From the IMG/VR virus record IMGVR_UViG_3300032321_001056, positions 14,508 to 78,507 of that record: a stretch of DNA of 64,000 bases. One strand, written 5' to 3'. Positions 20,942-50,953 of the stretch are shown one piece after another; position 1 is the stretch's first letter, and each line of letters starts with the position of its first letter. The notes under the pieces are model-generated. The model worked only from the letters and a program-made list of their open reading frames with translations, did no database searches and had not been told where the DNA came from. Source of the stretch: a virus. Taxonomy: Duplodnaviria > Caudoviricetes. A program made the position numbers and the translations under genes.

Positions 20942-20951
20942 GTTTTGTCTC

Positions 20952-23966: not shown

Positions 23967-23967
23967 A

Positions 23968-32300: not shown

Positions 32301-33422
32301 GTTATTGTCACCGCCCCCCTGAGGCATGTTCTCCGTTGTGTCAACTGTTATTGTTGACGAAGATGATATAATGTTTGCAGTCAAAACTGAGTTAATTAGT
32401 ATTTCATTTGTTTTTTGTATCTGCCAACCTGTGTAAACATGCGCCCGTAAGTCTTTTTTCATATACTTTCCATATGTTGAAGAAGAACTAAACAAGCTAA
32501 AATCTTTTCCGTTATTATCAAGTTTTAATGAGCAAGTTGAAGAACCACCACCTGCTATCGGGAGGCTTGTCTCATGGACATCTCTTACCTTAGCAACATT
32601 AAAATCCATTACATAGTCTGTAACATCTGTCTGGTAAATAGGGGCTACCTCATTCACCCTTGCACGATCAAGGGGATTCTTGGTAGTATAGACAGTTAAT
32701 ACTACTTTGTTTATATTGTTGCTATTTAAGTAATGAGTATTATAATAAGAGTTGTCTGGTATTTCAGAATCAACATTAAATACCAATGTAGCTGTATTCT
32801 CATAGGCTTGAATGTTATAAGATTTAATTTGACCGCTATACTCTGCTGTAATAACTTTAAGCATATTTACAGGTCTTCCTACGAAATTATATTCAATAAT
32901 CACTGGGCTGGAAAATTCATAACCATTTCTTGTTGCATGAGTATTACTGGTGCTTTTAACCCCAGAAATAAACCCAAATTCATAATTATCATCTTTTGAT
33001 GATGGGAGAGCATGCCATTGACCATTGGCAGTAATAGTTTTGCCAAACTTATCTTTTGCATCACAAACAGCCCATGTAAATGACTGGCGTTCTATCCCAT
33101 TAATTGATTCATTTGGAGTAAAATAATAATCAGACCTGTTTCTTTTATTAAACTCTACCTCTTTGGTAGAGAGGGTGCGGTATGTTGGTGTTATTCTGTT
33201 AGTCCTTAACAGCATCCCAGAAACTTCTAGGTTAATAGCATTTGTCGTTGCAGCTGTAAATGATGATGTGGAAGATGCAATTTCCGCATTATTATATTTA
33301 CCAACATGCCGACTATCTAGCCAATCAATTAAAATCAAAGGCTTAATTGTTTGAGATATGGCAGTAGTACTTTGAACAAAAGTATTTGATATCTGCTTAC
33401 CATATAGACCGTACTGAAGCAT
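29388..33422 (-). CDS. minor tail/hub protein with PA14-like and LamG/ConA-like domains
   Basis: Downstream of the TMP/Dit-like genes; LTAGRLYEIRIEFF (PA14-like); FSIEVYAK...FTHIGVTY...KYYING...FYIDEFAIF (LamG-like). Confidence 0.7.
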   Translation of the reverse strand: MLQYGLYGKQISNTFVQSTTAISQTIKPLILIDWLDSRHVGKYNNAEIASSTSSFTAATTNAINLEVSGMLLRTNRITPTYRTLSTKEVEFNKRNRSDYYFTPNESINGIERQSFTWAVCDAKDKFGKTITANGQWHALPSSKDDNYEFGFISGVKSTSNTHATRNGYEFSSPVIIEYNFVGRPVNMLKVITAEYSGQIKSYNIQAYENTATLVFNVDSEIPDNSYYNTHYLNSNNINKVVLTVYTTKNPLDRARVNEVAPIYQTDVTDYVMDFNVAKVRDVHETSLPIAGGGSSTCSLKLDNNGKDFSLFSSSSTYGKYMKKDLRAHVYTGWQIQKTNEILINSVLTANIISSSSTITVDTTENMPQGGGDNNFIVTINPGTTTQERVLCYKDSYNTLTVVERGFGDTEASDHTIGETVQFDPYEYVPCGIFYVDEWQSSSSDMSVNASLTNWNKFTNEKMITNGYFMQESTIAEAVDNLLLRTNFPKKDIDYFSKPSKTYKKDDAILHFGFDEDTVDRASTTRIPSPSLRARFVALPEKQQNTIKDIKLDANDRALSAEEISLDIITYVSPSFTSTSNVISTQPGGEAEPVALNYQNDSFVASNGSTITDYYNGVFDGYYIPSSSGIHRLNLEVKNCGVRMIFNKNMTEINSWYEVDPGSNVATTFQTEEMDLTAGRLYEIRIEFFHKTDDFGIALKKEFEGAEADWVWAHECVTMPSFDYIGSKSDVTYLDFASGSWSVNTGGNFVERVANRNDGRYVGSALTGQASGVVSDPGNKSVLLASNSYIRVPYHISYDIFDSSSSSYTNEFSIEVYAKFHNGSFAGTGEYISNWSNATSTSGFEFFNTSSSNGFKFKTSTGTATVTSNTALSSSVFTHIGVTYKSNTLKYYINGALANTVTTTGTLLPYTGKDLTIGGRGALFTPETLEEFAVETPPASFRSFYIDEFAIFKKMLTDEEIKKHYIETQMQPVFVMPFIYGNETTIQSLIDTISLADLGRLYIDEYGKARYEHYYRFFEPTIAQHASVQKTFSDDTNIIDASYNVQLQANKVTVKLTGVSTKNNALQGLWSVEDGTTLAVGKLNANIASNAASIPMVTTDKPYFPKSGYVKLDDEIIRYESKSANSLDTLTRAYFNTIAAAHTANTLVREVQQYTITYNSAPAYQVQNPLISGIFNKRPALVEIIKFEPNAYKANLIVAASQYAPDASEVWLKGTDELNNEQSVTAIAGIPIVVQQTNNDIREQTNTLSDNIRLYGLKEIVIENEFITNLAHAKTIADFLISKMSDPVPVLNLTITPTPTIQLGDRIRISSMDSFDIINGDYWVISTEIGYGSQPSQSMVIRKVI

Positions 33423-34481: not shown

Positions 34482-34877
34482 TTAGACCTCCACCAAAGAA
34501 ATCTCAACATCGTAATACGAACACTTTGTTGGCATATGTCTTCTTATCAGTTTTTCTGAATATGAATCAATAAAGCATTCATATTCTGTATACCCCTCAC
34601 CTGGGGCTAGTTCTATCCCGACTGTTACGCTCGCTCTCGTGTTGACTAAATTGCTTAAATAGCTCTGTCCAACCCGACCATCTGCAGTTACACTCTGTAC
34701 ACTTGGAAGGTACTTCCAGCTTATTGAAAACTTCTGTTTATTCTTAGAATAGTATCTTCTTCTATGACCGCTAGCCAAATCAATATCGTTAGCAGCAATT
34801 TCCTCATCAACTTTCAATGTTCTTCCGTGCTCTGTAATCTCAACACCGTCAATTGTCAGCAGCTTGTATAGGTCCAT
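34482..34877 (-). CDS. distal tail (Dit-like) protein
   Basis: First gene after the TMP; TIDG...RRY...FSISWKYL...Y.VEISLVEV. Confidence 0.6.
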   Translation of the reverse strand: MDLYKLLTIDGVEITEHGRTLKVDEEIAANDIDLASGHRRRYYSKNKQKFSISWKYLPSVQSVTADGRVGQSYLSNLVNTRASVTVGIELAPGEGYTEYECFIDSYSEKLIRRHMPTKCSYYDVEISLVEV

Positions 34878-37800
34878 TATTGACCCCTATTCAAACCATT
34901 GTATGTTGAAATTACACGATTTTCAAGACCAGCCGCTTTTTGATTTTTTGGCAAAATCTTTGTATTGTAATCTTTCATCATTGAGTTAAACCATTCTGGC
35001 TCTCCGATAAAGTTGTCAACATATATGTTTACATTCTGTGTTGATGTTGTCATTCCACCAGCCATGTTTCCACTGTATGATGCCTGTGGTACTGAGAATC
35101 CTGCGCTTGGAACATTAAACTTCATTTGATTCATCGCTTCAAGATGAGCCAAGCCGTACTTCTTTACAGCAGCAGCATTAAGAACATATTCTCCGCCATG
35201 AAGAATAGAAGGTACTTCTCCGCCTTCTTTAAAGTTAAGATAACCACCTTTCTTAAAGCGTGGAGGTTCAAAATTACCTTTTTCAAATTCTTTCCAAATA
35301 TATCGTGAAGATCTAGACGGTAAAAAACTGCTTATTTTTTCTTTTATTTTTGACATAAAAGTATAAATATCTTTAGTTCTGTTAAACAAATTAAATCTTT
35401 GCTCGCCTATTGGTAAATTTATTTCTGGGTTTTCTAGAAGATTCCACTCCTGCCCTCTCTTTATGCCAAAAACTTTTCCTATTTGTCTTAAAAGCGGGGA
35501 GTCGCCCCAAGCTCCTTGGTCAGTAAGATTATTATAAAGTTGTTGACCTACCTTTCTTTGAATTTCTGCATGATTAAACAATTCCCAAGATTGCGGTATT
35601 ATTCTTGGATCGCTATCAATCACTGGAGAACTGGGAGATTGGAATATATTCTTAAAAATATTTATAATTCCTTCTGTTAATTCCTCTTCATCTGGAATAC
35701 CGCTCGTTTTTCTAAGACCGAGCATTTTATTAATATATTCATTCCATTTAAATACATCCGCTTCTTCGTCTAAAATTTTTGGCATGTCTCCAGACAATTG
35801 CAAGCGAGCTTTAACTAAAAGTCTTTGTATTGTTTCATCTAAAGAATTACTATCTCTAAATGAACGGGCTCCAGATATCATATCTAATTCATCAAACAAA
35901 TCTATTATTTCCCTATCTATACCTTTCTTTCCAACAATACTTTCTACTGATGGTAATAGATCCCTAGTAGGGTTAGAAATTATTGAACTAGGATTTCCAG
36001 ATTGCAAAACTTTCTTTCCATAATTTTTCAATGCGCCTGGGATTGAATACAGGAATCCATCAGCTTTCAATTCAAATTGTGATGCTCCTTGTTTAATTTT
36101 ATTCCATGTCATTTTGGTTCCAATTTCTAAAGCATTCGGGAGCAAAGAGGCATCCATGCCAAGAAGACCAAGCCTATTCATGGCTATATCGCCCACACCC
36201 TTCAACGCTGGTCCGAACATTCTTTTAGCTATTGGAGTAAATGGCTTTGCAACAGCACCAACAATCTTGTCACCGTAAATTGTAGAAATAACATTTGCAG
36301 CATCTCCAAAACCATACTTTTTGTTATTAGCTATTTGACCAAACCCACCAGTTTTTCCACCAGGAATGTTTAGACCAGTAGCCTGGTTAAGACCACGAAT
36401 CCAGTTCACTCCTTCTTTCTCTGTCCTAAGAACTCTATTGTCCAAATTCTTCATTGGATTAAAGCTATATCTCTTATCCAGCAATGCCATTGGTGATTCA
36501 ACAACACTTGCACCTATGTTGTAAGCTGAATCTCCAAGTTTGACAAATGACTGGATCGTGTCTGTAGCCATATTAAGAACACCCTTGCCAATCCCGCCAA
36601 CTTTACCCCAGAAACCTTTCTTCTTCTTAGGAAGCATTGGACCAATAAAACCGCCTTGCTCAAAGCGTGGAACTTTAGGACCACCGAAGCGAGTAACCGA
36701 TCTACGAACAGCTGAGTCAACATAAGCAAGGGCTTCTTTTTGGGTCAATGTGCTTGGGATTTTTATTTCAGACAATACTTTAAGTGGATTTTTTGAAACA
36801 AATGAATTTGGATCAACATCATCAAAAATATCTGATGATTTTGGCATTCCCTTTGGTCCTCTTACGACATAAACACTTCCACCTGGGGCAGGAGCTGGAT
36901 AAGTTCCTTTAACTTTCCCCCACCCAGCTCTTGCACTTGCATTGTCAGTTCCAGTGTATTTCCAACTACCTTCAGTCATACCTGGTTGCATTGTTGCTTT
37001 CTTCAAGAAAGCAAGCGGATCTTTATTCCCAATTGCCGCATCAGCAAAAGGTTTTATTTCAGTTAACCCTTGTGTTGGTGAACTATGAAGGAATATTTCT
37101 TCACGCTTAATATAATTACGAAGTCTTGCAATATTACTTCTTACTTTATTAAATACACCCGTGATACCACTGTTTTCACGGTACTGTGCGAGGGCAGTTG
37201 CCAATTCTTCTTTTGTTGATGTGATTGGCAATTCTGCCAAAATTTTCTGCCAAGGAGACATTCTGGCTTCTGTCCACATAACATTGGGGTCCATTTCAAT
37301 ACCACCTTTTGATCTTGTGATATAGAAAGAAGATGAACTTGGGTCTGACAATTGGCTAACCCCTCCTTCACCAACTCCATACCCTTGCCTTTCTGCAAAA
37401 CCTTTTGCATATTTAGCTACATCGTCTACAGTGCCCTGTAGCCAAGAATATGTTTTTCCAGGTAATTGATCACTAGGTCCAGTCCTTAAAGCCCCCTCAA
37501 CTGCGTTAATTGATGAAAGACCAGATCTACCAGCATGGATACCAATTTTTTTCGCAAATGGATTAAATTTAATTAATTTATTAAAAATTGAAGTTAGCGG
37601 TCCAGCTTTATAGAAGTCGCTGCCGCTATATGGGAATAAACTAGATGGAGGTACTGGATTCATTGGTGTCATAGGTCTACCACTAGGCGAAATATACGGC
37701 GGTTTTTTATTTAATCTTACATACTCTTCATAAAACTCTTTGTTTTTATTTTCTCTTACAGCTCTAATTGCAATATTATCCGATCTAAAAATATTTTTAA

Positions 37801-40800
37801 ACCACCCTTCAACTGGAGCTTCATAATTTCTTAATGTATTACCTAAAGAATCTAACCCACCTTGCTTCCAGCTTCCTCCAAACGCTTTTAAGTAATCTCC
37901 AGCAACAGGGCTTATTTTACTTATTCCTTTTCCTAGAGAAGAAAGGGCTTTTGATTTTGTATATGAAACACCAGCTTTGATAAGACCTGGAATTTCTGCG
38001 GCATCCATACCAGCGAGACCAAGCCTGTTCATAGCTACATCGCCCATACCTCTCAGAGCAGGCGTGCCATATTTTGCAAGAGCAGGCATTATAAATCTTT
38101 CACCTATGGCACCTGCACCTGCCCCCAAGCCATACATCGCTCCTTGCAGTAACATATTCTTTCCAATATCAAGCGGCTGGAAGCCTTTCTTCTTGTCAAA
38201 CGCTTGTTCAACTAATGAACCAATTCCTCCGCCAGCTGCAGAGCCAGCCATACCAGCAGCGACCATTGCAGCGGGACCGCCTGGAGTTGCAAGTATAGCC
38301 GCAAGAGTTCCTCCAGCAATTGCAAATGAATTCTTTGGTCTTAATATTTCTTTACCTATATTGAAAGCACCCTTGCCAACACCAGCGACCTTACCCCAGA
38401 AACTCTTATTCTTCTTTGGAAGCATTGGACCAATAAAACCGCCTTGCTCAAATTTCTTTACTTTTGGTAGTTGTTTTTTAGTTTTATTTAATTTTGATTG
38501 CATTTGCAACCATGCAGTCCACTGAGGATCTGTTCCGCCAGCAATTGGCGGATTTCCCATACGCCATTGAGCATCCATTCTTGTAACAATAGTAGGAGCT
38601 GCTAGATTGTAACCCATGTTGCTGCGCCAGGCGTTAATATCCGCTGGCAATAAGTACCCCTCCCCTTTGTAAGCTGCATCATAACTCATAATTGAATTGA
38701 GCATTTGTGAACTACTGTTACCACCATACTTATTTTTTAAAGAACTTACATATTCATGAGGGTGATCAAACCCTCCAATATGACCGAACTCATGCATAAA
38801 TACTTCCTTATGAAGTGAAGGATCACCCCACATTAAATTTTTACTTCCAGTATTATAAGCCATTGATGCTGTATTTATTTTTCCATCTTTATTAAAAACT
38901 CCACCAGGTAAATGTATACCTGCACTAGTCTGCCCAGCCCACCATTTATTGGGCTGATAAGCAGTGTTTACATCAAGAAGCATTTGATTTCTTCTATTTA
39001 ATTTTGATTTCTCTAATAATGGACCAGCAAATTCAAAAGGAATACCTAAATATGTTGACATTGTAGCCATTGCATCGGATATACCTTGGTGCATGGTGAG
39101 CATCCTTCTATGATCTGTTGAAAATCCATCAGCCTCTTCGTTATGACGATTTGCGGCTATTCTATAAGCAGCATCACCGTCATTTCTTAATAAATCATCA
39201 TCATTCCAATAAAGTGGATTTACATATATTTTCTTTAGCCCTCTGATTATCAAAGCATTATTTGGCTTATAATTAACCATTCCACGAGCAATTTCTTGCT
39301 GAGTGTTTATAGCATCATTAACATATGCCAATTGAGGAGGCATATTGCCTACAAATTGAGGTTCAGGCAGATGAGAGTAATAACTATTACCGCCTATTGA
39401 TTCTTCATGGTCTTTACGAAGCTGATCAATATATATATCAAGAGCTTCAGGAAAATCACCGCCCATTTTTTTCTTGTAATCTTTAATTTGAGTCTTCCAA
39501 GGTTCTTTATTGACATCAAACGCTGGTTTCTTTTCAAAAGTTGTTTGATTTTGATTACCACCCTTACCTTTCTTGCCAAAAAACCAAGACAAAGGATTCA
39601 AATTCTTGAGCTTTGGCAAGCCAAAGCTCTTGAGCCTTGGTAAGCCAAAGCCAGGCTTCAAAAAACCGCCAAGTTTGAATTGTGGAATCATTCCGCCGAG
39701 GTATTTTTTAACACCACTATCTGATCTTGTCCACCTGTTCTTTCCATCCCATACTATGGAAACATCTTCACCTTTCTTTCCGCCCAGTGGGATTCTATCT
39801 GTTGGGTAGTAGCCAAGAATATGGCGATACCGAACAGGAAAGCCAAATGAGCCTACTGGTTCACCTATGTGGTCTTTCCATGTGGTCATTTGCGGTTGTC
39901 TATCTGCTCCGCCTCCTTCATGATGAATCCAAGGCGGATCTGGTTGATTTGTATAACCAGCCCAAGGAGCATCTGGTTCATAACTTCCATCTTGTGGGTA
40001 TCGTTTTTCAGGCGGAATAATTGGAGTTATTCTTCCACGCCTTCTTGAATTTGGGTCTTGTTCTTTAGGAATTTGCCTTCTTGAAGATGGATTGCCTTTT
40101 ACCCTAATTTGATCTTCATAACGATCTGGACTTACATGACCTCTAGACCAAATCCAAGGATCACCAGCTTTTCTCAAAAAACCACCATTTGCAAAACCTA
40201 GAGCCTTATCAAATTTTTTCAATTCATTAAGAGGCTGGAAAAATACCCTATTTTTTCTTACACCTTCATACCCATCCAGGAACTTAGGTTGTCTATAGTA
40301 TTCATATTGGCTATCTGGAATTCCCTTAAAGGCAACCATTTCAGCAATCTTTACTTGATCTTGCCAAGATGGAGTTGCATTTGGATTATTAAAGTTTCCT
40401 ACATCAACACCAGTTTGCTTCTTATAAGCATTGCTATAAATCTGCCATGTTTTTCTTGCAATATTTAATGGACCAACAAATACTCCACGACTTGTTTTTG
40501 TTGTTGCACCGAGCGCATTCATCCAATCAGGACCAGATTCAGATCTAGCTATTGCAGCCCAGTCAAGCATGTGCATTGTTGTTCCAGTTGCTTTACCAGA
40601 CCTGATGTTTACATTTGGAACGGTATAAGATTGACCACTATTATTAGTAAATGTTCTAAGGCTACTGTCATCACTTGGATTAATTGGCTCAGAATCTTTT
40701 GGTCTTCTTCTTACTGCACCGCCACGAGCAAATCCAGGCGCTGTCATATATCCACCGTTTGCAAAACCTGGAGCTGTCATATAACCGCCATTTGCAAACC

Positions 40801-43800
40801 CAGGAGCAGTCATGTATCCGCCAGAAGCAAATCCCCTCCAAGCACCGCCGTTCTTTAGTGAGTTAATTCTTTCAAGGTTTCCTTTTCCAAACTTCTCCAC
40901 AGCTTTGTGGTTGATAATGTATTCACCACCGTGAAGTAACGCAGGAATTCCTTGTGACGCTGGCGCTTCTAAGAAGCCACCACGACCATATTGACCAATA
41001 GACCCACCGTTGTACATTTTTGGCAGAAGCGGTCCGCTACCAGCACCACCGCTAAGGTCTACTGTTGACCCTGGAAGATTAATTCCTGCCATTATCTTTA
41101 TTGCCCAGCCTTGTTCAAAAGGAGTCAAGCCAGATGTAGGGAGAATGGCTTTGATTCCAACCACACCTCTTAATATATTGCTTGCAATTAAGCTAACAAT
41201 TCTTGCAGCAGATGCAGCCATAGCAGTTCTTTGCGCAGGACTGGCAAATCCAGTTTGCATAAGACCAGTAGCTGTTTTTGTCCACTCATCAATTGTTGAT
41301 TGTGGTATTGATGCAATTTCTGGGGCACCGCCAATACCTTGCAAAGCGGAACTTGCTTTTGCCGCTTGAGTTACAATTTGATCAACTAATGGTTTAATTT
41401 CCGCTAGAAGATTACTAAAGCTAGCCAAAATTTTAGGGAATGCAATATCTCTATTTAATTCACCTTTCAGCTTTTCAAACGCATCATTTCCAGCTTTTTG
41501 CCAAATATCAGCAATGTTATTCTTATTACCTTTTTCTGAAAGTGAAGATGTAATTTTTGCAATAGCGTCAACTGCTGGTTGCACATATGTTGTAGCAAAT
41601 GTAGGATTGAAAGCTGCCTTAAACCCTTCCTCGCTCCCAATAGCCATCATTCTTACAGCACCAAGAACTGTTGAAGGGCTAGCTACTTTATTATCTACTC
41701 CAAATTTCTTAGATGCTTCTCTAATCAAATCATCCATATTGGCACTAAACATCTTGATAGATGGATCACGAACTCCAGCGATAATGGCTGGAAGCTCACC
41801 AATGTTTTTAGCAAAAACTTTGGCTAGATCAGACGAAGAAACATTTGCTTGATCCCCAACTTTTTTTAGGGCAGCAGCAAATTCTTCTTGTGTTGCAAAA
41901 CTCTTATTCTTTACATCTTCAATAAACCGATCAAATGAATCAAGGACTTCCTGGAATTGTTTCTCGGCAAGATCTTTTTGATTTGAAATTGCTTGCTTAG
42001 CTAAATCTCTTTGTTCTGACTGGAGCTGAGATAGCCTGTCGGTATCAAGATCTTGAATTTCTTGGTTAGAATTTCTTTGAGCCAATACCTCTTCTCTGTC
42101 AAGCTTTCTAACATCAAACGCACGACCCTCGTAAACCGCCAGTCTTCTCTCTACCAAGTAGTTTCCACGATCAGTCTCTCTCTGATCAATCATCTCTCTA
42201 CGCTTTGTTTCGTAGTCTTTCTTAGCCGTTAATCTTGCTTCAGCATCAGCAAGAGCATCAATACCAGCAATTTGGTCATCATAAGCTTTCAACTGCTGAT
42301 CTTTTTGCTTTTCTAATGCATCAGTATATTGTTGAATAATATTGTCAAATTTAGCATCAACATTTGAATAAAAGTAACCTTTCAAAGTATCTTTTATTTC
42401 TTTCATCTTATCTTTTATACCATTAGCGATCTGACTTCCAAGTGATTCTCCGCCTGATGAGGCAGCATCAGCTGATTGTTTTACATTATATGCTAATGCA
42501 TCTTTATAGCCCTTTGGATCTTTAAGAGCTTGTGTCAATGGTACATTTATACCTTTACCAATTAATTCAAAATACTTTTTAGAAGCAATGTCAAGTTGAC
42601 CAACCATAACTGTATCAAATATTGATTTAATTTTAGGTAATAGATCACCGATACCTTTATCTACATTTGCAGCAAAATCTGATTGAACTTTGTCAGATTC
42701 AGCACTACCACTTGAGCCAGCAGTAGTTTTTTTATTATCAAACTTTCCAGATCTTAGGGCATCCCTTTGCTCTGTTAAGGACATTCCTTTTGTAGTGTAA
42801 TTTTGTCCACCAGGACCATTACGAACATATTTAGATACTGGTGTATCAATTCCATATGTTTGACTTTTAACAACAGCAGCTAAAACATTATTAAGAATTC
42901 CATTTGCCATATCTTTCCCAGCGGCTACTGAAAGCTGAATTAGAGCAACAAACATTTGACCAAATATGTTTAATATACCCTTTGCTATTTCACCAAATAC
43001 TGGTGTTAATGTAATAGATACATTTATGATTCCATCTACTAATTGTTTAAATATATTGATAACATCATAATAGAAGGACCACATTATTGCTTTAATTTTT
43101 TTCATTCCAGATTCAGTGTCACCGCTAGCAAAATTTTTGATAGCAGAACCAAGAAGAATAAACTTGTTAATTATTCTAACAAGCTGAGGCGCTATTGTAT
43201 TTTTCATAAATGCAGCGCCAGTTGTCTTAGCCCAGTTCCGAATGGCTTCTGCGGCTTTCTTTATAAATCCAGTTATTGAGTAGAATAATGCAGCGTTCTT
43301 CTCCCCCTCTGTTGCAAATTGTCCAAGAACTTTGTTTCCACCTGTGAATTGATTAATTACATCTCTAATCGGAGCAAACAATGCTGCAACAGCTTCTTTA
43401 ATAGCAGCAAAAGCATCTTTTAGATTTTGCATTGATGAATCTAAACGACCAGATGCTGATTTCCATGCTCCAAAGAATCCAACAAGAATCGCTATAACTG
43501 GAAGAGCTATGAGCACTGCAGTGCCAACTAGTGCTATTGTACTAGCTAACTTCGTAAACATATTCATCATCTTTTCACCAGCTTTAACTATTCCGCCATC
43601 AAATAGTCCACCAGCAGCAGCGACTGTTTTACGAACTAAACCAGCTGGTGATTTACCTTGTTCTGACCTCAATGTATTCATTGCAGAAATTGCTTTTTTA
43701 GCACCAGAAATTCCATAATCCCCAGATGTAGCAAGATTCTTTATTGCGTTGAAAGCTTTCTTTGCTGGACCAACTAGCGCAGATAGACCGCCAGATAATG

Positions 43801-46800
43801 CAAATAGCCAAACTTTAAATGTTGTTTTTCCTAAAATAGATTGCAATCTTGAGAAATTACCAATCAATTTTCCACTAAGAACTCTATTAGCTTTTTCAAG
43901 TTCAATTTGTGAAACTCTTCCAAACTGGCTTACCTTTTCTATACTCTTCAATACTCCCTTATCATCAAATCTTGCAAAGATTCCTTTAGCTGTCATTCTT
44001 TTTGCAAGACCTGGGAATGTTGAAATACCTTCAGCTGTTGAATCTTGAGTTAGTGCATCTGCAAACTTTCTATTATTAAAGAACTTTCCAAGTAACCCTT
44101 TTCTTCCTGTTTTTGGACTATTAAAACCCAAAGCGCCAGCAGTAGGTGGTGGTAGAAGATTTGTAGCACTTACTGTCTCTGCTGCTGTTACAAGCGCTGC
44201 GGCTGCCTGTTCTCCACCAGCAGCTATTGAAGCAGCTGCTTCTTTTGCGGGGAGTGTTACTTCATCAAAATTTGGAATCATATCTTGCAAGTTTGCATCA
44301 AAGATATTTTCCGAGAAAATGTTTGGACCTTTAAATAAGTGTCCGATCTTATCAATATTTAGAACTTTTCCAGCACCGCCAGTTGCTGATGGTGTTGCAG
44401 GAGTTGGTATTACTGGTGTTGTAGGAGTTGGAATTCTTGGAGGCGGTGCTGTTGGCGCTGTACCTCCAGTTGTTCCAGTTGGTATGATTGAAGATGGTGC
44501 TGTCGGTGCAACAGTAGAAGCAAGTTGCGCAAGCTGGTATTCAGCAACAACATACTTATCCCTTGCAAAAGCAAGATCTTGTAATTGCTTATTGAGCTTA
44601 GCTAAATTCTTTTCTGGTCCCTTTCTCATCGCTGGTGATGTAAATGTATTAAGGAGTTTTTGTTCCCCAGCAATCATCCCTTGAAGTCTTTCAATTTCTT
44701 TTTCAAAATGTGTGACCGTTAATTTCTTAATTTTTGCGGAAGCACCAGAAGCTTTAGCGTCAATACCTAATTGCCTTGCTAATTCTCGCTGAGCGGATTC
44801 CATCATCTTTTCTGCTTGCCTCTTTGTTGCTGGCAATTCTATTCCAGTATTCTTAAAACTCTTAACGGTTGCAGGGGTTGGAGATATAGTAGGCGATGTG
44901 GTTGTTGGCAATTGAGCTGCAGCAACAGGGGTAACTGGAGCTTGTACAACTGGCAGCATCCCAGACAATCTATTTGCAAGTTGATTTCTCAAATCTTCAG
45001 CGGCTTGTTTCATACCAATAGGATCAGACTTAGCCAAGCTCATATCAACTTTCTTAGCAATCTTATTCATTACTTTTTTAGGTGCCTGAACTATGTCATC
45101 AATGCCAGAAAAAGCATTATTAACAATTTGCTCTACTTTCTTTTCAACAACAGCCTTTGCACCTTTAGGAGCATTTTTTGCGGCTCTGGTTCTTGCAGCA
45201 AGTGGTCTCCACCAATCATTGATACCTCTTCTACTAACTTTTGTTGCATCTTGATCAAAAGAACCGCCAAGACCAACAAATCCACCAGACATTGATTGAT
45301 ACACAAGATTTTGTAATGCACCAGTTATCCCCCGACTCGTTCCAAAATTCTCACCTTCCTTAAGTTTTATTAAACTAGAGCCAAACAGTAGTTCTTGAAG
45401 CCCCATTTTTTCTCCGTCAAGACCTTGAGTTTTTTTGCGCAATCTTTCAAAGAAAGCTTTAAGACTTGCTGGAGTGCCGCCCTTAAGACCATCACGACCA
45501 GCGGTACCACCTTTAAATGTCTTTGTTACATCATTAACGACATTATTTACTGACAAGTTTATCATTGACTCAATTTGATCCTGAGTCATTCCTGGAATGT
45601 TCATTGTTGCTGTCAAGAAATTTCTCAGAACATTAGGTAAATGTTTATGTTTTGTTTTAGTTGAAGCCAATCTTCTCATAACTTCAGAAATATGTTTAAC
45701 TTCAGTTTGAGATGTTGAAACAACAGTCAATAATTGTTCTTCCAAGCTATCTGCAAATCTCATAATGATATCGCTTCCAGTAAACTGAGTGTAGTCAAAT
45801 GCGGCACTTAAGCTCTTAGGGAAGCGGAATAAACTCTTAACACGACCAAAAACTCCTGGAGTTTTTGCACTTGCAGCAATTGCTTCAGTTTCAGATGCTG
45901 ATCTCTTGAAAATTTGTTTTATCCCAACGGTTGACAAGAATCTTTGCCCACTTCTTGGGTTAAGTATTCTTTTTGCGTTCAACTGCTGGAATCTTGGGTC
46001 ATTAAAGAAACGAGAACCACTATATTTAAATGTATCTAATGGTAAATTATCTCCAACTGCCTTTTTTTGAGTAGGGATAAAATTCCACATTGGGTTTACA
46101 GGTGCAGCTCTTCTAATTGGAGCAACTGCCTGATTAAATTTTTCCCCAAAGAATCGTGAGCCTTTATATTTTGTCCAAGGAAGATTTATACCTCTTGTTG
46201 CATCTTCAATATCACCTTCAAGTTTTTGCACTGGGGCGTACATTTCCTTTAGACGCTGTTTCAAATTCAATATTGATGTTTGCCTACTGGCTCTTCTCTT
46301 CATTTTACTATCTTTTGAGCTTAATAATTCAGCATTCAACATTTCTCTTTCAGAGGCAATAAATTCTTCATGAGGTGTGAGCTGAGGCATTACTCTTGGC
46401 TTAGGGAGCTTTGCTGTTTCAGCGTCAATCAATCTTTGTATAGCGGCAGGTGATTCATCTAAATTCTGACGCAATCTTCTTAATGAAGCGGTTTTCTGAG
46501 CATTTAAGATATCAATTTCATCTTGAAATGCAATTTTTATTTCTTCCAACTTGGCTAAACCAGCTTTTTCAAGTTTTGCTTTGCCAGTTTTTGTTATTTT
46601 CATTTCTTCAGTAATTATATCTTTAGCATTCTTTAATTCTAAATCTCTTAATCTGACTTGCTCAGCAATAAGATCATCTATCTCGGCTACGCTATTTCTA
46701 GACACTTCTTGAGCTGCTAATAACTCAGTTTCATTTATAGCAAGACTCATATCAACACCATTAGGTGAAATCATAGTTTTATTTCTAGATAAAGCTTTTG

Positions 46801-49800
46801 CTTTTTGTTTTTTTAATGCATCAATTCTTTGTCTTATTGGTGCAGCAACATTTGTTTCAGAAAAATTTGTAGCTGTAGCTTCAGCTACTCTTTCTGCAAT
46901 AATGTATCTTTCTTGCAGAAACAATAATTCATCAAGATTTCTAACAGCAGATGTCCTAGCTCTTCCTGTTGAAGTAGCTATTTTTTTCTTTAAAGATTCA
47001 ATTTCATCTCTTACCTTTATTTCTTCTACTGTTTGACTTCCGATTAATCTTTCATCCCATGTAAGACCTTTTTTAACAGCCTTTTCAGCCCCCTTTGCTG
47101 GCAGACTGCCTACTTCAGCAGCGGCTCTATCTGCAGCTTGAAGCGCAAGAGTTTGATCATTCTGTTTTCCTAAAATAGGATTTTTTACCAATTTAACAAC
47201 TGCTTGACCAGATTTATTTACATCTTCTTCAAAACGAGAAACTTTAGCACGGACATCTCTCATTGCTCTTCTTAAATCATCACCAAATGAAGATATAGGA
47301 CCAGCTTCATGAGCAATAATATCTATTTGATCAGCAATTTCTGGCAGTAATTTATGAATATCAGCAAGGGAATTAACAACTACAGTCTCAGAGCCCCTTA
47401 CAACACCTTTAGTAACTCTTTGAATTGCGACAAAATGATCTTCAACTGCAGCTGCAAGATCTGCTTGTAAAACTTCTTTACCAGAAATAAAATCAGTTAT
47501 AATGCGACCAGAAGCGCCCATCGGTGTTCCACCAAAAGCATTTATTTCCATTTCATTAGCCGCTGCAAGTGCTACATTTCGCATATTATCAATTTGATCT
47601 TGAATTGATTTAGCAACATTGTCAACTAAAGGAGCAAGCTCTGCCTGCCCTGCTGTACCGAAACTTCTTGCATTACGAATTACAGCTGAATTAATAAGTC
47701 TATCATCAATACCTGTTTCTTTAACAGAAACAGTGAATAAACCTTGTTTAGTTTTGTCAAAAATTTGTTTTTTAACTTTATCAAGAGTTTTTTGACTTAC
47801 ACCAAATACGCCATTACCAGATAATGCTTCTGCAAGTATTGGCTCCATTTCTTTTCCAGCTTCTTCATACCATTGTTTTATTTGTGCCAAAGATAGCTCT
47901 ACAGTGTTGCTAATTGATGATACTGCCTTTTCTACTGGATTTTCTGCTGGTCTAAATAATGAGAGAATACTTCTTCTTCTATCGGAAGCTTTTCTTGCAC
48001 CAAATGGCAACGCTGAACCTACAGTGTTAGGTATCTGTATATTCCTAACATCTGCTTGAGCAAATCTTGGATCATTAAAGAAACGGCTCTTCCCTGTTGG
48101 GAACATTGAAGCCCAAGCAGCTTTCGCTTCTGCCATCGGAGACTTTACTGATCCTGGTGCATTTGGTATTGCTAAATTTCTGACATCGGCTTGAGCAAAT
48201 TGTGGAGTAAAGAATCTACTGACACCTGGTGGATAAGTAGTAACTGTTGGTGGTCTTAACCTAGCCTTTCTTGCCTCATTTGCAGCAATAGCTGCTGCGC
48301 TTTCTTCTGCAGTTAGATTGTCAGCGATAGCGCCGCCAGCTCCTCTTGGTGCTCTAGGAGCTTTTGGCGCACTGCCTGGACCTCCAGAGAATCCGCCAAA
48401 TGGAATATTATTTTCAAAATAGTTTGGACCCGCAAACAAGTTTGGTCCTTGAAATTTATGCATTACTGTTGCAAACTTCATTGCAATATCATCAGCAAGA
48501 TTTGCTGTTCCTTTTGATACTCCCTCTTCAGAAGCATTAGCTACTCCAGCAACCATTTGGGCAGTCCCTTGAGCCTGTATGACTTTTAGATCATTCATCA
48601 ATTGATTTGTTTGCGGGACATAAGGCTGAAGCCTCTTCATGTTTACAGCCTTATCTGATCCGTAAATACCTCCACCTGTGATTGCTTCTTTTGCTGGGAG
48701 AGAAATTCCACTAAAGTCATAGGCTTCTTTTAGTTCCTTAGCACCTCTCTTTGATTTAATTAAGAACCCATCCATGTATTGAACAACTCTTTGTTGCCCA
48801 CGCAATAAATTTGGATTCATGATCAAGTCTTGAAGACTTGCAAATTGTAATGTTGTCCCATTTATAATTCTTGATAATTTAACAAACAAACCAATCGTAC
48901 TTCCAAAAGCAGTTTTTAGTGTTGTAAACACCATTCTTAATGGTCCAGATAAAGCAACAACTCCAAGAAGAGCGCTAACTAATTTTGCAATAAATGGATT
49001 GGTTTGCAAAAAAGTTGCAAGCTTTTCAAGAACTGGAAGAAGACCTTTTAAGAAAATGTCAACAACTGGGACAACTGCTCTGCCCAATGACAGCAATGAT
49101 TCTTTTGCTCTGCGGTATCTAACTTCTGGTGTGTCTTGAGATAGTTTCAATTCAGCTTCAAATTGAGTACCAGCTAATTTGTTAACATCAAAAGCTTGAG
49201 CCATTAAAGCTTTACCAACTTCAGTACTCATTCCAGAAATAAAATCTGAATTTTTTGACTTATTTTTTTCCAGTAATGCTTGCGCTTTCAGTTGTCCTTT
49301 TTGAACAGCAAGAGCTTGTGCTGTTAACACATCCTTACCGTCTTTCTGAATAGCCATTCTATGGAGCGTGCTTAGGTCTTCAAACTTTTTAATTGTTATT
49401 TCTTTTTGACCTATAGCACGCAATTCTGCGTTAACAGAATTTTGCAATTGTTTAGCTACGGTATTCTCCATAGTCCCAGTAGTATCCAATTGTTTCTGAA
49501 ATGCATTAAGTTGTGCGATTGCAGTTTCCATTCTTGGACCTTGACGAACACCAAATAACCTGGAGAACAACTCAAGAGCACCTTGTTTTCCCTTTCCGCC
49601 TTTACTTACATCTTTTACAAGATTTCCATATGCATCAGAAAGTTGCTGAATATTATGCATACCAACACCAGCAGAATATTCAAAATCTTTTCCAAGAGCT
49701 TCATGAAGACCAGAAAGTATTTGCGTATTTTGCTTTGTCATTGCAACCATTCTTTGCAATGAAACTTTCATTGAGTTAGCTGAAGCACCAACTTGAAAAC

Positions 49801-50953
49801 CAGAAGCGACCATAGGTAGGATTAGCGCAGTAGCTTCTGTCATTGACAAACCAAAGCTTGTTGCTGCAGCAGTTACTTCTGGGAAAGCGTCAGCAATGTT
49901 GCGCAATGACATAACTGTTTTGTTTTCAATTAAGTTAAATACAGCCAACTGACCTTTTAATTGAGTAATAATCTCATTTGCAATAGCCTCATTACCAATA
50001 TCAACTGATTTACCAGTTTCTCTTCTAATACGAAGAATTGTTTGGTACATTGATTGAATAAATTCAGAAGATTGAGAAATATCCAAGTTGCCAAGTTTCT
50101 CAGTCTCAGCTGTCATTTTTGTTAATTGATATAAAACAGTTGCGCTAGCAATACCTAATTCAGCAAAGTCTCCAGCAAGAGACTGAATGAGAACACGACT
50201 TGTTCCCCACTCTCTAGTAATCTTGTCTAATTCTTTGCCAAGTTCTGCAGTAAACTTTTTAGCAGCCTTAACTTGCTTATCTAACCCATCTTGACCGCCA
50301 GTATTTAATTGCGCAAAGTTGTCAAGAACAAGCTTAGTTGTTCTGTTACTTTCTGTAGCAAGTTTTGAATAGCTAAAAAATGCTTCTCTTAAACCAAGAA
50401 TAAGTGGCATTGAGAAGTTCTTTGAAAAATTGTAAGCAGCTTGCTGACTTTTTACTGCATTGTCGCTAATTCTTTTTGAATAATCAAGAAGAGCAACTTG
50501 CTTCATTGCTTTTTGCAAATCATTACTTGATGTCTTCATAGCGTTTAAATGAGTGACGCTTTGAGACATTGCAGCATTTGATCTACTTAATGTATTAGGG
50601 TCAAGCGATCCATTTTGCATTGCCCTTTGAGCCGCAGAATAAGCTGTTGCAGACTTAGTTGCTTCATCCAGAACTCTCTTCTGCATTTCTACTGCATTTG
50701 TCATTTTTGCCAATGGGCTGAGTGACTGGCTTATTTCCCTTGAATATTGAGAAACCCCGCTTATACTCAAGCCCATTGATTGATTAAATGCTTTTGTTAC
50801 ATTGGCATTCTGAACAGCTCTTTGGGATAGAGTTGCAAGCTGTTGTGATAAATTAACTATCTGAGCTGATAGCTCGGCAGCACCCTGCTGAGCGTTGCCC
50901 TGCATATTAATTTCTATTGTAGTTTGTTCATTAGAGTTAGAAATATCAGACAT
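34877..50953 (-). CDS. giant tape measure protein (5358 aa) with embedded Rpf-like, metzincin and two ART-like domains
   Basis: Follows the tail chaperones; TP901-like core (LRNIADAFPEVTAAATSFGLSMTEATALI..M...G....ASANSMK); hydrophobic central segment; LHGGEY motifs. Confidence 0.93.
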   Translation of the reverse strand: MSDISNSNEQTTIEINMQGNAQQGAAELSAQIVNLSQQLATLSQRAVQNANVTKAFNQSMGLSISGVSQYSREISQSLSPLAKMTNAVEMQKRVLDEATKSATAYSAAQRAMQNGSLDPNTLSRSNAAMSQSVTHLNAMKTSSNDLQKAMKQVALLDYSKRISDNAVKSQQAAYNFSKNFSMPLILGLREAFFSYSKLATESNRTTKLVLDNFAQLNTGGQDGLDKQVKAAKKFTAELGKELDKITREWGTSRVLIQSLAGDFAELGIASATVLYQLTKMTAETEKLGNLDISQSSEFIQSMYQTILRIRRETGKSVDIGNEAIANEIITQLKGQLAVFNLIENKTVMSLRNIADAFPEVTAAATSFGLSMTEATALILPMVASGFQVGASANSMKVSLQRMVAMTKQNTQILSGLHEALGKDFEYSAGVGMHNIQQLSDAYGNLVKDVSKGGKGKQGALELFSRLFGVRQGPRMETAIAQLNAFQKQLDTTGTMENTVAKQLQNSVNAELRAIGQKEITIKKFEDLSTLHRMAIQKDGKDVLTAQALAVQKGQLKAQALLEKNKSKNSDFISGMSTEVGKALMAQAFDVNKLAGTQFEAELKLSQDTPEVRYRRAKESLLSLGRAVVPVVDIFLKGLLPVLEKLATFLQTNPFIAKLVSALLGVVALSGPLRMVFTTLKTAFGSTIGLFVKLSRIINGTTLQFASLQDLIMNPNLLRGQQRVVQYMDGFLIKSKRGAKELKEAYDFSGISLPAKEAITGGGIYGSDKAVNMKRLQPYVPQTNQLMNDLKVIQAQGTAQMVAGVANASEEGVSKGTANLADDIAMKFATVMHKFQGPNLFAGPNYFENNIPFGGFSGGPGSAPKAPRAPRGAGGAIADNLTAEESAAAIAANEARKARLRPPTVTTYPPGVSRFFTPQFAQADVRNLAIPNAPGSVKSPMAEAKAAWASMFPTGKSRFFNDPRFAQADVRNIQIPNTVGSALPFGARKASDRRRSILSLFRPAENPVEKAVSSISNTVELSLAQIKQWYEEAGKEMEPILAEALSGNGVFGVSQKTLDKVKKQIFDKTKQGLFTVSVKETGIDDRLINSAVIRNARSFGTAGQAELAPLVDNVAKSIQDQIDNMRNVALAAANEMEINAFGGTPMGASGRIITDFISGKEVLQADLAAAVEDHFVAIQRVTKGVVRGSETVVVNSLADIHKLLPEIADQIDIIAHEAGPISSFGDDLRRAMRDVRAKVSRFEEDVNKSGQAVVKLVKNPILGKQNDQTLALQAADRAAAEVGSLPAKGAEKAVKKGLTWDERLIGSQTVEEIKVRDEIESLKKKIATSTGRARTSAVRNLDELLFLQERYIIAERVAEATATNFSETNVAAPIRQRIDALKKQKAKALSRNKTMISPNGVDMSLAINETELLAAQEVSRNSVAEIDDLIAEQVRLRDLELKNAKDIITEEMKITKTGKAKLEKAGLAKLEEIKIAFQDEIDILNAQKTASLRRLRQNLDESPAAIQRLIDAETAKLPKPRVMPQLTPHEEFIASEREMLNAELLSSKDSKMKRRASRQTSILNLKQRLKEMYAPVQKLEGDIEDATRGINLPWTKYKGSRFFGEKFNQAVAPIRRAAPVNPMWNFIPTQKKAVGDNLPLDTFKYSGSRFFNDPRFQQLNAKRILNPRSGQRFLSTVGIKQIFKRSASETEAIAASAKTPGVFGRVKSLFRFPKSLSAAFDYTQFTGSDIIMRFADSLEEQLLTVVSTSQTEVKHISEVMRRLASTKTKHKHLPNVLRNFLTATMNIPGMTQDQIESMINLSVNNVVNDVTKTFKGGTAGRDGLKGGTPASLKAFFERLRKKTQGLDGEKMGLQELLFGSSLIKLKEGENFGTSRGITGALQNLVYQSMSGGFVGLGGSFDQDATKVSRRGINDWWRPLAARTRAAKNAPKGAKAVVEKKVEQIVNNAFSGIDDIVQAPKKVMNKIAKKVDMSLAKSDPIGMKQAAEDLRNQLANRLSGMLPVVQAPVTPVAAAQLPTTTSPTISPTPATVKSFKNTGIELPATKRQAEKMMESAQRELARQLGIDAKASGASAKIKKLTVTHFEKEIERLQGMIAGEQKLLNTFTSPAMRKGPEKNLAKLNKQLQDLAFARDKYVVAEYQLAQLASTVAPTAPSSIIPTGTTGGTAPTAPPPRIPTPTTPVIPTPATPSATGGAGKVLNIDKIGHLFKGPNIFSENIFDANLQDMIPNFDEVTLPAKEAAASIAAGGEQAAAALVTAAETVSATNLLPPPTAGALGFNSPKTGRKGLLGKFFNNRKFADALTQDSTAEGISTFPGLAKRMTAKGIFARFDDKGVLKSIEKVSQFGRVSQIELEKANRVLSGKLIGNFSRLQSILGKTTFKVWLFALSGGLSALVGPAKKAFNAIKNLATSGDYGISGAKKAISAMNTLRSEQGKSPAGLVRKTVAAAGGLFDGGIVKAGEKMMNMFTKLASTIALVGTAVLIALPVIAILVGFFGAWKSASGRLDSSMQNLKDAFAAIKEAVAALFAPIRDVINQFTGGNKVLGQFATEGEKNAALFYSITGFIKKAAEAIRNWAKTTGAAFMKNTIAPQLVRIINKFILLGSAIKNFASGDTESGMKKIKAIMWSFYYDVINIFKQLVDGIINVSITLTPVFGEIAKGILNIFGQMFVALIQLSVAAGKDMANGILNNVLAAVVKSQTYGIDTPVSKYVRNGPGGQNYTTKGMSLTEQRDALRSGKFDNKKTTAGSSGSAESDKVQSDFAANVDKGIGDLLPKIKSIFDTVMVGQLDIASKKYFELIGKGINVPLTQALKDPKGYKDALAYNVKQSADAASSGGESLGSQIANGIKDKMKEIKDTLKGYFYSNVDAKFDNIIQQYTDALEKQKDQQLKAYDDQIAGIDALADAEARLTAKKDYETKRREMIDQRETDRGNYLVERRLAVYEGRAFDVRKLDREEVLAQRNSNQEIQDLDTDRLSQLQSEQRDLAKQAISNQKDLAEKQFQEVLDSFDRFIEDVKNKSFATQEEFAAALKKVGDQANVSSSDLAKVFAKNIGELPAIIAGVRDPSIKMFSANMDDLIREASKKFGVDNKVASPSTVLGAVRMMAIGSEEGFKAAFNPTFATTYVQPAVDAIAKITSSLSEKGNKNNIADIWQKAGNDAFEKLKGELNRDIAFPKILASFSNLLAEIKPLVDQIVTQAAKASSALQGIGGAPEIASIPQSTIDEWTKTATGLMQTGFASPAQRTAMAASAARIVSLIASNILRGVVGIKAILPTSGLTPFEQGWAIKIMAGINLPGSTVDLSGGAGSGPLLPKMYNGGSIGQYGRGGFLEAPASQGIPALLHGGEYIINHKAVEKFGKGNLERINSLKNGGAWRGFASGGYMTAPGFANGGYMTAPGFANGGYMTAPGFARGGAVRRRPKDSEPINPSDDSSLRTFTNNSGQSYTVPNVNIRSGKATGTTMHMLDWAAIARSESGPDWMNALGATTKTSRGVFVGPLNIARKTWQIYSNAYKKQTGVDVGNFNNPNATPSWQDQVKIAEMVAFKGIPDSQYEYYRQPKFLDGYEGVRKNRVFFQPLNELKKFDKALGFANGGFLRKAGDPWIWSRGHVSPDRYEDQIRVKGNPSSRRQIPKEQDPNSRRRGRITPIIPPEKRYPQDGSYEPDAPWAGYTNQPDPPWIHHEGGGADRQPQMTTWKDHIGEPVGSFGFPVRYRHILGYYPTDRIPLGGKKGEDVSIVWDGKNRWTRSDSGVKKYLGGMIPQFKLGGFLKPGFGLPRLKSFGLPKLKNLNPLSWFFGKKGKGGNQNQTTFEKKPAFDVNKEPWKTQIKDYKKKMGGDFPEALDIYIDQLRKDHEESIGGNSYYSHLPEPQFVGNMPPQLAYVNDAINTQQEIARGMVNYKPNNALIIRGLKKIYVNPLYWNDDDLLRNDGDAAYRIAANRHNEEADGFSTDHRRMLTMHQGISDAMATMSTYLGIPFEFAGPLLEKSKLNRRNQMLLDVNTAYQPNKWWAGQTSAGIHLPGGVFNKDGKINTASMAYNTGSKNLMWGDPSLHKEVFMHEFGHIGGFDHPHEYVSSLKNKYGGNSSSQMLNSIMSYDAAYKGEGYLLPADINAWRSNMGYNLAAPTIVTRMDAQWRMGNPPIAGGTDPQWTAWLQMQSKLNKTKKQLPKVKKFEQGGFIGPMLPKKNKSFWGKVAGVGKGAFNIGKEILRPKNSFAIAGGTLAAILATPGGPAAMVAAGMAGSAAGGGIGSLVEQAFDKKKGFQPLDIGKNMLLQGAMYGLGAGAGAIGERFIMPALAKYGTPALRGMGDVAMNRLGLAGMDAAEIPGLIKAGVSYTKSKALSSLGKGISKISPVAGDYLKAFGGSWKQGGLDSLGNTLRNYEAPVEGWFKNIFRSDNIAIRAVRENKNKEFYEEYVRLNKKPPYISPSGRPMTPMNPVPPSSLFPYSGSDFYKAGPLTSIFNKLIKFNPFAKKIGIHAGRSGLSSINAVEGALRTGPSDQLPGKTYSWLQGTVDDVAKYAKGFAERQGYGVGEGGVSQLSDPSSSSFYITRSKGGIEMDPNVMWTEARMSPWQKILAELPITSTKEELATALAQYRENSGITGVFNKVRSNIARLRNYIKREEIFLHSSPTQGLTEIKPFADAAIGNKDPLAFLKKATMQPGMTEGSWKYTGTDNASARAGWGKVKGTYPAPAPGGSVYVVRGPKGMPKSSDIFDDVDPNSFVSKNPLKVLSEIKIPSTLTQKEALAYVDSAVRRSVTRFGGPKVPRFEQGGFIGPMLPKKKKGFWGKVGGIGKGVLNMATDTIQSFVKLGDSAYNIGASVVESPMALLDKRYSFNPMKNLDNRVLRTEKEGVNWIRGLNQATGLNIPGGKTGGFGQIANNKKYGFGDAANVISTIYGDKIVGAVAKPFTPIAKRMFGPALKGVGDIAMNRLGLLGMDASLLPNALEIGTKMTWNKIKQGASQFELKADGFLYSIPGALKNYGKKVLQSGNPSSIISNPTRDLLPSVESIVGKKGIDREIIDLFDELDMISGARSFRDSNSLDETIQRLLVKARLQLSGDMPKILDEEADVFKWNEYINKMLGLRKTSGIPDEEELTEGIINIFKNIFQSPSSPVIDSDPRIIPQSWELFNHAEIQRKVGQQLYNNLTDQGAWGDSPLLRQIGKVFGIKRGQEWNLLENPEINLPIGEQRFNLFNRTKDIYTFMSKIKEKISSFLPSRSSRYIWKEFEKGNFEPPRFKKGGYLNFKEGGEVPSILHGGEYVLNAAAVKKYGLAHLEAMNQMKFNVPSAGFSVPQASYSGNMAGGMTTSTQNVNIYVDNFIGEPEWFNSMMKDYNTKILPKNQKAAGLENRVISTYNGLNRGQ
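36630..38452. repeat. exact 35-bp direct repeat pair inside the TMP
   Basis: ggaagcattggaccaataaaaccgccttgctcaaa at 36630-36664 and 38418-38452; offset 1788 bp (596 codons). Confidence 0.95.
40718..40835. repeat. 33-bp degenerate tandem repeat encoding GFA[SN]GGYMTAP x3 plus GFARGG
   Basis: Copies are near-identical in protein and differ mainly at synonymous positions. Confidence 0.9.

Follow-up and report, generated by a model that had tools for sequence, protein, structure and literature searches.

We analysed a 64,000-nucleotide (nt) stretch of viral DNA (Duplodnaviria; Caudoviricetes), called the window below, which spans bases 14508-78507 of one 78.5-kb virus record with a siphovirus-like genome (IMG/VR record IMGVR_UViG_3300032321_001056). 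All long open reading frames (ORFs) of the window lie on its minus strand. One of them, at positions 34877-50953, makes up 20% of the genome and was identified from its domains and its setting as a tape measure protein (TMP) of the TP901/PhageMin_Tail type, here P0001. It carries a PF10145 (PhageMin_Tail) domain scoring 41.3 bits against a curated cut-off of 33.2, and PHROG TMP families 167 and 5448 match its N-terminus and two C-terminal places. Small genes and a gene for a major-tail-like protein of 193 amino acids (aa) lie upstream, and conserved tail genes of 131, 352 and 1,344 aa lie downstream. The gene order around the TMP was the same in 12 of 12 loci from independent metagenomes (131-, 352- and 1,343-aa genes downstream in the relatives); judged by sequence, the twelve compared loci are close relatives from one phage group. 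Here we describe an array of exchangeable modules in the C-terminal part of this TMP, lying between two copies of its end motif (Table 1).

Architecture of the tape measure protein

The end motif, which we call U, has the form FxxGG-x17-LHGGEY[IV][IL]N... and occurs in P0001 as U1, with IPALLHGGEYIINHKAVEKFG at aa 3336-3356 (nt 40886-40948), and as U2, with VPSILHGGEYVLNAAAVKKYG at aa 5247-5267 (nt 35153-35215), leaving about 1,890 aa between the two LHGGEY-type motifs. With the final 134 aa of the TMP as query, tblastn matched 171 cultured-phage records, mainly from phages of Pseudomonas, Vibrio, Mycobacterium and Xanthomonas, with few of Escherichia; among the 25 matches listed, the annotated feature under the match was a TMP in every case. 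U sits 80-140 aa from the TMP end in phage Halfdan and in Nitrincola phage 1M3-16. Because U is a generic end motif of cultured-phage TMPs, we take U2 and the last 76 aa as the ordinary TMP end and U1 as an extra internal copy. By the precedent of T5 and 80alpha (PMC10038345), these last 76 aa are probably a tail-tip anchor.

A region-restricted search yielded 65 giant TMPs of 2,961-6,438 aa, and further homologues came from a full HMMER search. Among the homologues longer than 2,500 aa (n=109), 45 carry one U, 54 carry two and 10 carry three or more. An insert is missing where there is only one U; where there are two or three, 1,100-2,700 aa separate the copies. Six TMPs (P0004, P0005, P0009, P0019, P0022 and P0023) have three U units and thereby two successive cargo arrays, in the order U R cargo U R cargo U Cterm; P0019 is 6,438 aa long.

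The array is also set off by the short motif [FY]xxGG, which occurs 11 times (aa 3322, 3375, 3386, 3397, 3408, 3587, 3759, 4168, 4764, 5233 and 5241), all of them in the C-terminal 2,037 residues, with none in aa 1-3321. When the C-terminal part was shuffled the motif appeared 2.2 +/- 1.5 times, and 0 of 2,000 shuffles reached 11. At the first [FY]xxGG the composition shifts as well: A+E+L+K+Q make up 39.7% of aa 1-3321 and 20-32% of the modules, and aromatic residues 6% of the ruler and 9-13% of the modules. The first-pass annotation had read the gene as a TMP holding its C-terminal motif twice, with Rpf-like, Pro/Arg-rich, metzincin and glycine-zipper modules between the copies, each starting or ending at [FY]xxGG. 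This outline agrees with what we found, the borders it named being the motifs at aa 3408, 3587, 3759, 4168, 4764 and 5233. The annotation also called the sequence between the copies not helical; on this point the AlphaFold2 model of M5 is all-helical, though of very low confidence. Sub-module borders at aa ~4300, 4380, 4600, 4900, 5011 and 5200 lack FxxGG, so the motif marks cassette borders and not every domain border.

Table 1. Features of the TMP gene, in window coordinates and P0001 residue numbers
Feature	Residues (aa)	Window position	Strand	Basis or remark
Whole TMP gene (P0001), 5,358 aa		34877..50953	-	stop-free translation
Ruler part, without [FY]xxGG	1-3321	40991..50953	-	PF10145 at aa 247-468
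U1, internal copy of TMP end motif (FxxGG-x17-LHGGEYIIN...)	3322-3374	40832..40990	-	41% identical to U2
R, 11-aa tandem repeats GGYMTAPGFAN (33-nt units)	3375-3412	40718..40831	-	four FxxGG motifs
M1, predicted Rpf-like lytic transglycosylase module	3413-3590	40184..40717	-	ARSESGPDW at aa 3469-3477 (nt 40523-40549)
M2, Pro/Arg/Gly-rich module	3591-3762	39668..40183	-	confined to closest relatives
M3, predicted metzincin-type zinc protease module	3763-4171	38441..39667	-	HEFGHIGGFDHPHEY at nt 38750-38794; Met-turn NSIMSYD at nt 38678-38698
M4a, cassette leader (FEQGGFIGPMLPKK..FWGKV.G.GKG), glycine zipper and AMNRLGL linker	4172-4379	37817..38440	-	glycine zipper at aa 4211-4248
M4b1 domain	4380-4612	37118..37816	-	recurs in P0009, P0018, P0019 (twice) and P0072
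M4b2 domain	4613-4767	36653..37117	-	invariant H, Y, D; weak, non-significant Arr resemblance
M5, second cassette with M4's leader; sub-parts M5a and M5b	4768-5232	35258..36652	-	missing from P0002 and P0003
U2, terminal copy of TMP end motif	5233-5282	35108..35257	-	motif and PHROG matches
Conserved C-terminal 76 aa		34880..35107	-	86-99% identical in close relatives
35-nt exact direct repeat, copy 1, M4/M5 border		36630..36664	.	encodes FEQGGFIGPMLP; inside 104-nt repeat, 85% identical
35-nt exact direct repeat, copy 2, M3/M4 border		38418..38452	.	encodes FEQGGFIGPMLP

One property runs through ruler and array alike. The 5,358-aa TMP contains 0 cysteines, and the 109 giant homologues contain 20 in 426,516 aa, against 1.02% cysteine in the other ORFs of the window. 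Since the near-absence of cysteine extends through the modules, they share the TMP's own constraint, which argues that they travel with the TMP. Such a lack would suit a protein that must stay unfolded, or must pass as a thread through a narrow channel and an oxidising compartment.

Exchange of cassettes among relatives

Modules were compared across 21 syntenic giant TMPs from metagenomes. In BLAST of P0001 against each relative, the alignments break at aa 3403-3413, 3593-3625, 3757, 4164-4173, 4769-4770 and 5231. Counting 525 ends of high-scoring segment pairs inside the array, many of them from distant relatives that share only U, 39% lay within 10 aa of the six junctions, compared with 7.5% expected. 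Whole cassettes differ between individual TMPs. P0002 and P0003 are collinear with P0001 to aa 4770 and resume at aa 5231, with M5 missing exactly between PRFEQGG and PRFKKGG. P0004 is without M1 and M2, carries other material and a second U-R unit instead, and rejoins at aa 3757; in P0007 and P0012, M1 or R is joined straight to M5 at aa 4769.

The clearest evidence of exchange that the sequences offer is the mosaic against P0002, read from a sliding identity plot. Identity is 96-100% over M2, 23-66% over M3, 90-100% over the leader and M4a, 45-85% over M4b and 93-100% over the terminus, with a gap at aa 4765-5215 (M5); the metzincin module is a 44%-identical allele between 96-100%-identical flanks. 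These junction-bounded swaps, the loss of M5 and the allele mosaics bear out the earlier proposal that modules are gained, lost and replaced at [FY]xxGG junctions. Just upstream of U1, window positions 41024-41431 (aa 3175-3310) are 23-33% identical to P0002 and P0003 between flanks that are 76-96% identical, which points to allele replacement at the ruler's end too.

A greedy module library separated 36 module families, in varied combinations, among the 21 TMPs. It was used instead of single-linkage clustering of the inter-junction segments, which merged all of them into one family because leaders are shared. In the relative P0068, two metzincin alleles stand in tandem (L006:1259-3673); they differ from each other and are 59% and 42% identical to M3 of the window. 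At the DNA level, the M3/M4 and M4/M5 borders carry the two copies of a 35-nt repeat that is the only exact repeat of at least 20 nt in the 16-kb gene. The copies lie 1,788 nt (596 codons) apart, in frame, and M4 and M5 share a 63-nt repeat as a second common piece besides the 104-nt repeat. We conclude from these comparisons that the FxxGG-plus-leader junctions are recombination sites; that they also serve as cleavage sites is speculation on our part. DNA and protein searches of the cultured-phage collection gave no match for the array, and a scan of IMG/VR viral contigs for M3 found nothing.

The relatives also bear on whether separate genes were fused by an assembly or gene-calling artefact, a concern with a metagenome-derived record estimated to be 69% complete. 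We find this hardly credible: the frame is open for 16 kb, a 97%-identical TMP fragment from another sample (P0067) and the collinear, full-length P0002 and P0003 come from independent samples, and the same architectural logic recurs in dozens of TMPs.

Module content, ruler and neighbouring genes

M1 is predicted from its sequence to be a divergent Rpf-like lytic transglycosylase. PF06737 (Transglycosylase-like) matched seven of seven M1 homologues, with a best E of 1.1e-5; one relative scored 21.7 bits and distant family members 28.2 bits. The catalytic Glu lies in ARSESGPDW, a motif of the (C/S)ESG.NW type, and is invariant in seven sequences, down to 45% identity. RpfE and RpfC were the best PDB profile matches, with non-significant E-values, and aligned on the catalytic-Glu motif. 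Actinobacterial Rpf has conserved disulphide cysteines. These are missing from M1, there being no cysteine anywhere in the TMP.

M3 holds both defining sequence features of the metzincins and is a predicted, serralysin-like protease. The extended zinc motif HExxHxxGxxH reads HEFGHIGGFDH (aa 4054-4064), and all five alleles keep its H, E, H and H. Across these alleles, which are only 44-59% identical, HEFGHIGGFDHPHEY and the Met-turn MLNSIMSYD are invariant as well. The top PDB profile matches were all serralysin-type proteases (E 0.08-1.3), with alignments that take in the zinc site, HPxEY and, beyond it, SIMSY, and reprolysin-type Pfam families matched four to five of the five alleles below threshold (best E 0.00086).

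The zinc site, the Met-turn and the Rpf Glu are invariant across alleles only 40-59% identical, which indicates selection on catalysis. This invariance speaks against a reading in which the modules are ruler or spacer only, filling tail length, with their exchange the usual gain and loss of TMP units and their enzyme-like motifs relics. A 114-aa embedded motif does add ~20 nm to the tail of TM4 (PMC1796659), the AlphaFold2 model of M5 is all-helical at very low confidence (pLDDT 38), and the ruler is mosaic as well, for example at aa 3175-3310. With a module composition sharply unlike that of the ruler and a junction motif restricted to the array, however, we think it quite improbable that the modules are spacer alone.

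The remaining modules are less readily assigned. The linker of M4a is common to M5, and in relatives the glycine zipper of M4a gives a DUF6861 match just below the cut-off. M4b consists of two units, M4b1 and M4b2, with separate distributions among relatives: M4b1 is found behind five different neighbours, and P0207 is the only stand-alone M4b relative. M5b (aa ~5011-5208) is widespread and has an invariant DPRIIP.S.E. A profile search of M5 against the PDB gave chance matches only, a sequence search of the whole array against the PDB gave nothing, and the ESM Atlas held no usable match for M5 or M4b2. The low pLDDT of the M4b and M5 models reflects shallow alignments of 8 and 7 rows, and fold searches on models this poor are uninformative. 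The expectation of a recognisable fold for each module stood in part: M1 and M3 have family matches, below threshold in the window copy, and M4b and M5 have poor models and no significant fold match.

The first-pass annotation had also placed two folds like those of ADP-ribosyltransferases (ARTs) in M4b, and here every profile test failed. Pfam searches of eight M4b homologues at E up to 10 gave no ART family, PF12120 (Arr-ms) had no match in the whole genome at E up to 10, and PDB profile searches with M4b1 and M4b2 separately did not find Arr. A tandem duplication relating M4b1 to M4b2 was rejected (hhalign probability 0.6%). A non-significant fold hint came from the M4b model, whose pLDDT is 50. 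Foldseek placed Arr structures at ranks 2, 3 and 5 of 350,542 chains with E ~2, and VIA-align matched model residues 238-368 (M4b2) to Arr 14-127, most of Arr, with Z 2.3-2.7 and rmsd ~5 A over 81-86 residues of a poor model; a wide fold search with the same model was swamped by its N-terminal helices. M4b2 keeps an H, a Y and a D in every homologue, even in P0207 at 37% identity, as possible counterparts of the H-Y-D triad of Arr-type enzymes. Going by this model, the Arr resemblance may serve as a lead for the M4b2 half only.

In an alternative reading, the cassettes are cut apart and work within the cytoplasm of the host, as polymorphic toxins or polyvalent proteins do, among them two ADP-ribosyltransferases in M4b that would modify host targets as T4 Alt does. 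The architecture is like that of polyvalent proteins, which have a zincin peptidase hub and often ARTs (PMC5512222). The glycine zipper stands directly before the M4b payload, in parallel with Tde1, a type VI secretion system (T6SS) toxin (PMC10240207), and Arr aligns over most of its length to M4b2 with its invariant H, Y and D. Against these stand the Foldseek and VIA-align scores on a pLDDT-50 model, the absence of any ART from the Pfam, PF12120 and PDB profile searches, two M4b halves that are not detectably related, and a TMP gene followed by no immunity gene or orphan cassette. Moreover, the two identifiable enzymes point to the envelope and not to the cytoplasm, and we consider cytoplasmic action of this kind unlikely.

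Outside the array, the ruler part has hydrophobic segments at aa 654-676, 2465-2500 and 2660-2678. The strongest hydrophobic stretch of the TMP is the 36-aa segment at aa 2465-2500 (window 43454-43561; Kyte-Doolittle up to 2.9), ~820 aa before U1; by analogy with the hydrophobic stretch of T5 pb2 it is likely a membrane-inserting segment. The ruler also holds four copies of the motif G/K-SRFF-x-[DE]-[PK]-[RF]-F-x-Q in two pairs, at aa 912, 956, 1599 and 1647 (window ~46015-46160 and ~48088-48220), with basic residues after each copy.

The 1,344-aa tail protein encoded two genes downstream of the TMP (window 29388-33422) matches minor-tail and tail-fibre PHROGs at its C-terminus, and its relatives carry Laminin_G_3 and PA14 domains; it is a probable receptor-binding protein. 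Window positions 6904-25770, on the same strand as the tail genes, encode a large terminase, a glycosyltransferase, a UvsX-like recombinase, a 1,133-aa DNA polymerase, a primase, a DnaB-like helicase and an exonuclease.

Possible delivery of the array and its relation to known systems

We favour, at a probability of roughly 60%, the reading that this is a giant siphovirus TMP with an exchangeable cassette array, whose cargo is carried in the virion and released first into the cell envelope. The protein has three parts: an ordinary ruler (aa 1-3321), an in-frame array of ~1,900 aa, and the usual end of U and the 76-aa terminus. The array may have arisen at a duplication of the end motif. At the start of each cassette stands the conserved FxxGG[FY] peptide, with a leader that is basic and hydrophobic, and the conserved junction stretches, with DNA identity up to 35 nt, act as recombination handles for the deletion, insertion and replacement of cassettes. 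Held as cargo in the distal tail lumen, the array would come out first when a cell is infected. The envelope would be the target of the Rpf-like lysin and of the zinc protease, and the membrane that of the glycine zipper, making the array a changeable entry and early-infection toolkit.

What the sequences show is the array with its borders, its exchange between relatives, the catalytic motifs and the lack of cysteine. We infer that the array is present in the virion and ejected, as we infer any cutting of the junctions and whatever the modules do as enzymes. It is most likely in the virion because the TMP fills the tail tube, has its C-terminus at the tip and exits ahead of the DNA. In studied phages the TMP C-terminus forms a trimer in the tail tip, and the TMP leaves before the DNA (PMC10038345; PMC12617516).

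Several results weigh against this reading. The M1 of the window itself scores 14.7 bits against PF06737 (E 0.051), under the curated cut-off of 27, and M3 scores 15-16 bits against Reprolysin_2/3/4/5, whose cut-offs are 22-27. M2, M4b and M5 match nothing in NCBIfam, Pfam or PHROGs, and the AlphaFold2 models (pLDDT 50 for M4b, 38 for M5) lend no support to folding. The tail tube must also hold three copies of some 1,900 residues that are not ruler, which would be feasible only if these are unfolded or extended. Among the genome contigs scanned with the C-terminal 128 aa there were no prophage copies, and the names in the sequence clusters pointed to no host. Finally, most relatives with the junction motif lack the metzincin. 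The M3 metzincin was accordingly rejected as a general junction-cutting enzyme: it is missing from most of the relatives that keep the junctions, so it is not a general processing enzyme.

Known TMP processing raises a further alternative, in which the cargo is removed before or during assembly by a cut at U1/R in tail maturation, as gpH is converted to gpH*, and is then discarded or used only in the producing cell. Lambda gpH is cut in a Gly-rich region near its C-terminus, and the C-terminal piece of ~14 kDa stays in the tip (PMC12617516). T5 pb2 is cleaved in tail assembly after R1127, at a site that separates the hydrophobic stretch from the peptidase, and the 92-aa pb2C also stays in the tip (PMC10038345). 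The Gly-rich R repeats directly after U1 are suggestive in this respect. We nevertheless regard early removal as very unlikely: the C-terminal fragment remains in the tip in both precedents, the cysteine lack runs through all modules, and the conserved, putatively tip-anchoring terminus comes only after the array, whose presence is thus needed at least while the tail is assembled. Like P0001, T5 pb2 and lambda gpH have a functional piece at the C-terminal side that is distinct from the ruler, that of T5 with a metallopeptidase motif. They differ in that each has one small cleaved C-terminal fragment, whereas here a large array is known from sequence and FxxGG[FY] is tied to no protease.

Returning to an array delivered with the virion, parts of it have precedents. 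The TMP of TM4 has an embedded Rpf-like/peptidoglycan-hydrolase motif that counts towards tail length and is dispensable for viability (Piuri and Hatfull 2006, PMC1796659). It is thus an embedded cell-wall hydrolase motif of the same Rpf/transglycosylase-like kind, but TM4 has single short motifs inside the ruler, whereas here several large exchanged cassettes of ~1,900 aa lie between two end motifs, and the Rpf-like module is without cysteines. Thermus phage P23-45 gp96 is a 5,002-aa TMP fused to a virion RNA polymerase, and it brings this working enzyme into the host (Chaban et al. 2024, PMC10770324). Like P0001 it is a giant TMP of ~5,000 aa, and it also has metallopeptidase and membrane domains; its enzyme, however, is N-terminal and fixed, whereas the cargo here is C-terminal, multiple and exchangeable, and we found no sequence relation between the two. 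The glycine zipper of Tde1, which resembles TMP C-terminal regions, carries a T6SS toxin across a membrane (PMC10240207).

Two further comparisons concern architecture. Polyvalent proteins combine 2-15 unrelated domains, most commonly a zincin-like metallopeptidase, and are thought to travel with DNA (Iyer et al. 2017, PMC5512222). P0001 is similar in uniting at least seven modules in one phage polypeptide, one of them with a zincin/metzincin site, but polyvalent proteins are described as capsid-packaged or transferred by conjugation, and TMPs are mentioned 0 times in PMC5512222; the likeness drawn here is one of architecture. Polymorphic toxin systems likewise combine a constant delivery part, a short conserved junction and recombining variable payloads (Zhang et al. 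2012, PMC3482391). The first-pass annotation had compared the TMP to a cassette array of this toxin-like kind. The conserved junction and variable payload uphold that comparison; immunity genes and downstream orphan cassettes do not, since neither is present and conserved tail genes follow in every relative. The payloads here also stand in series, in one reading frame.

TMPs that hold a lysin motif, are cleaved or are fused to a polymerase are already known, as are polyvalent proteins, and our literature searches gave no description of cassette arrays in TMPs. As far as sequence can tell, what is distinctive here is the insertion between duplicated end motifs, the FxxGG[FY] junction peptide and unusually clean comparative evidence. 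We also entertain, with considerable doubt, the broader idea that siphophage TMPs are a general, undescribed delivery platform. The duplicated end motif would be the insertion site and the junction both a recombination handle and a release site, and cysteine-free cargo (Rpf-like lysin, metzincin, glycine-zipper translocator, new enzyme folds and possibly an Arr-like ART) would be threaded out ahead of the DNA.

TMPs are usually treated as rulers, perhaps with one lysin motif. In P0001, cassettes take up a third of a 5,358-aa TMP, and among close relatives they are reshuffled at defined junctions. The conserved array domains without known relatives are candidates for new envelope-active or host-modifying activities, and the junction marks out where the chemistry of TMP cleavage in lambda-like phages might be sought. 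Should the cargo be delivered, the tail lumen would be a second route, besides the capsid, by which ready-made proteins enter the host; host-range or entry determinants could then change by cassette exchange, and tail length may be coupled to cargo content.

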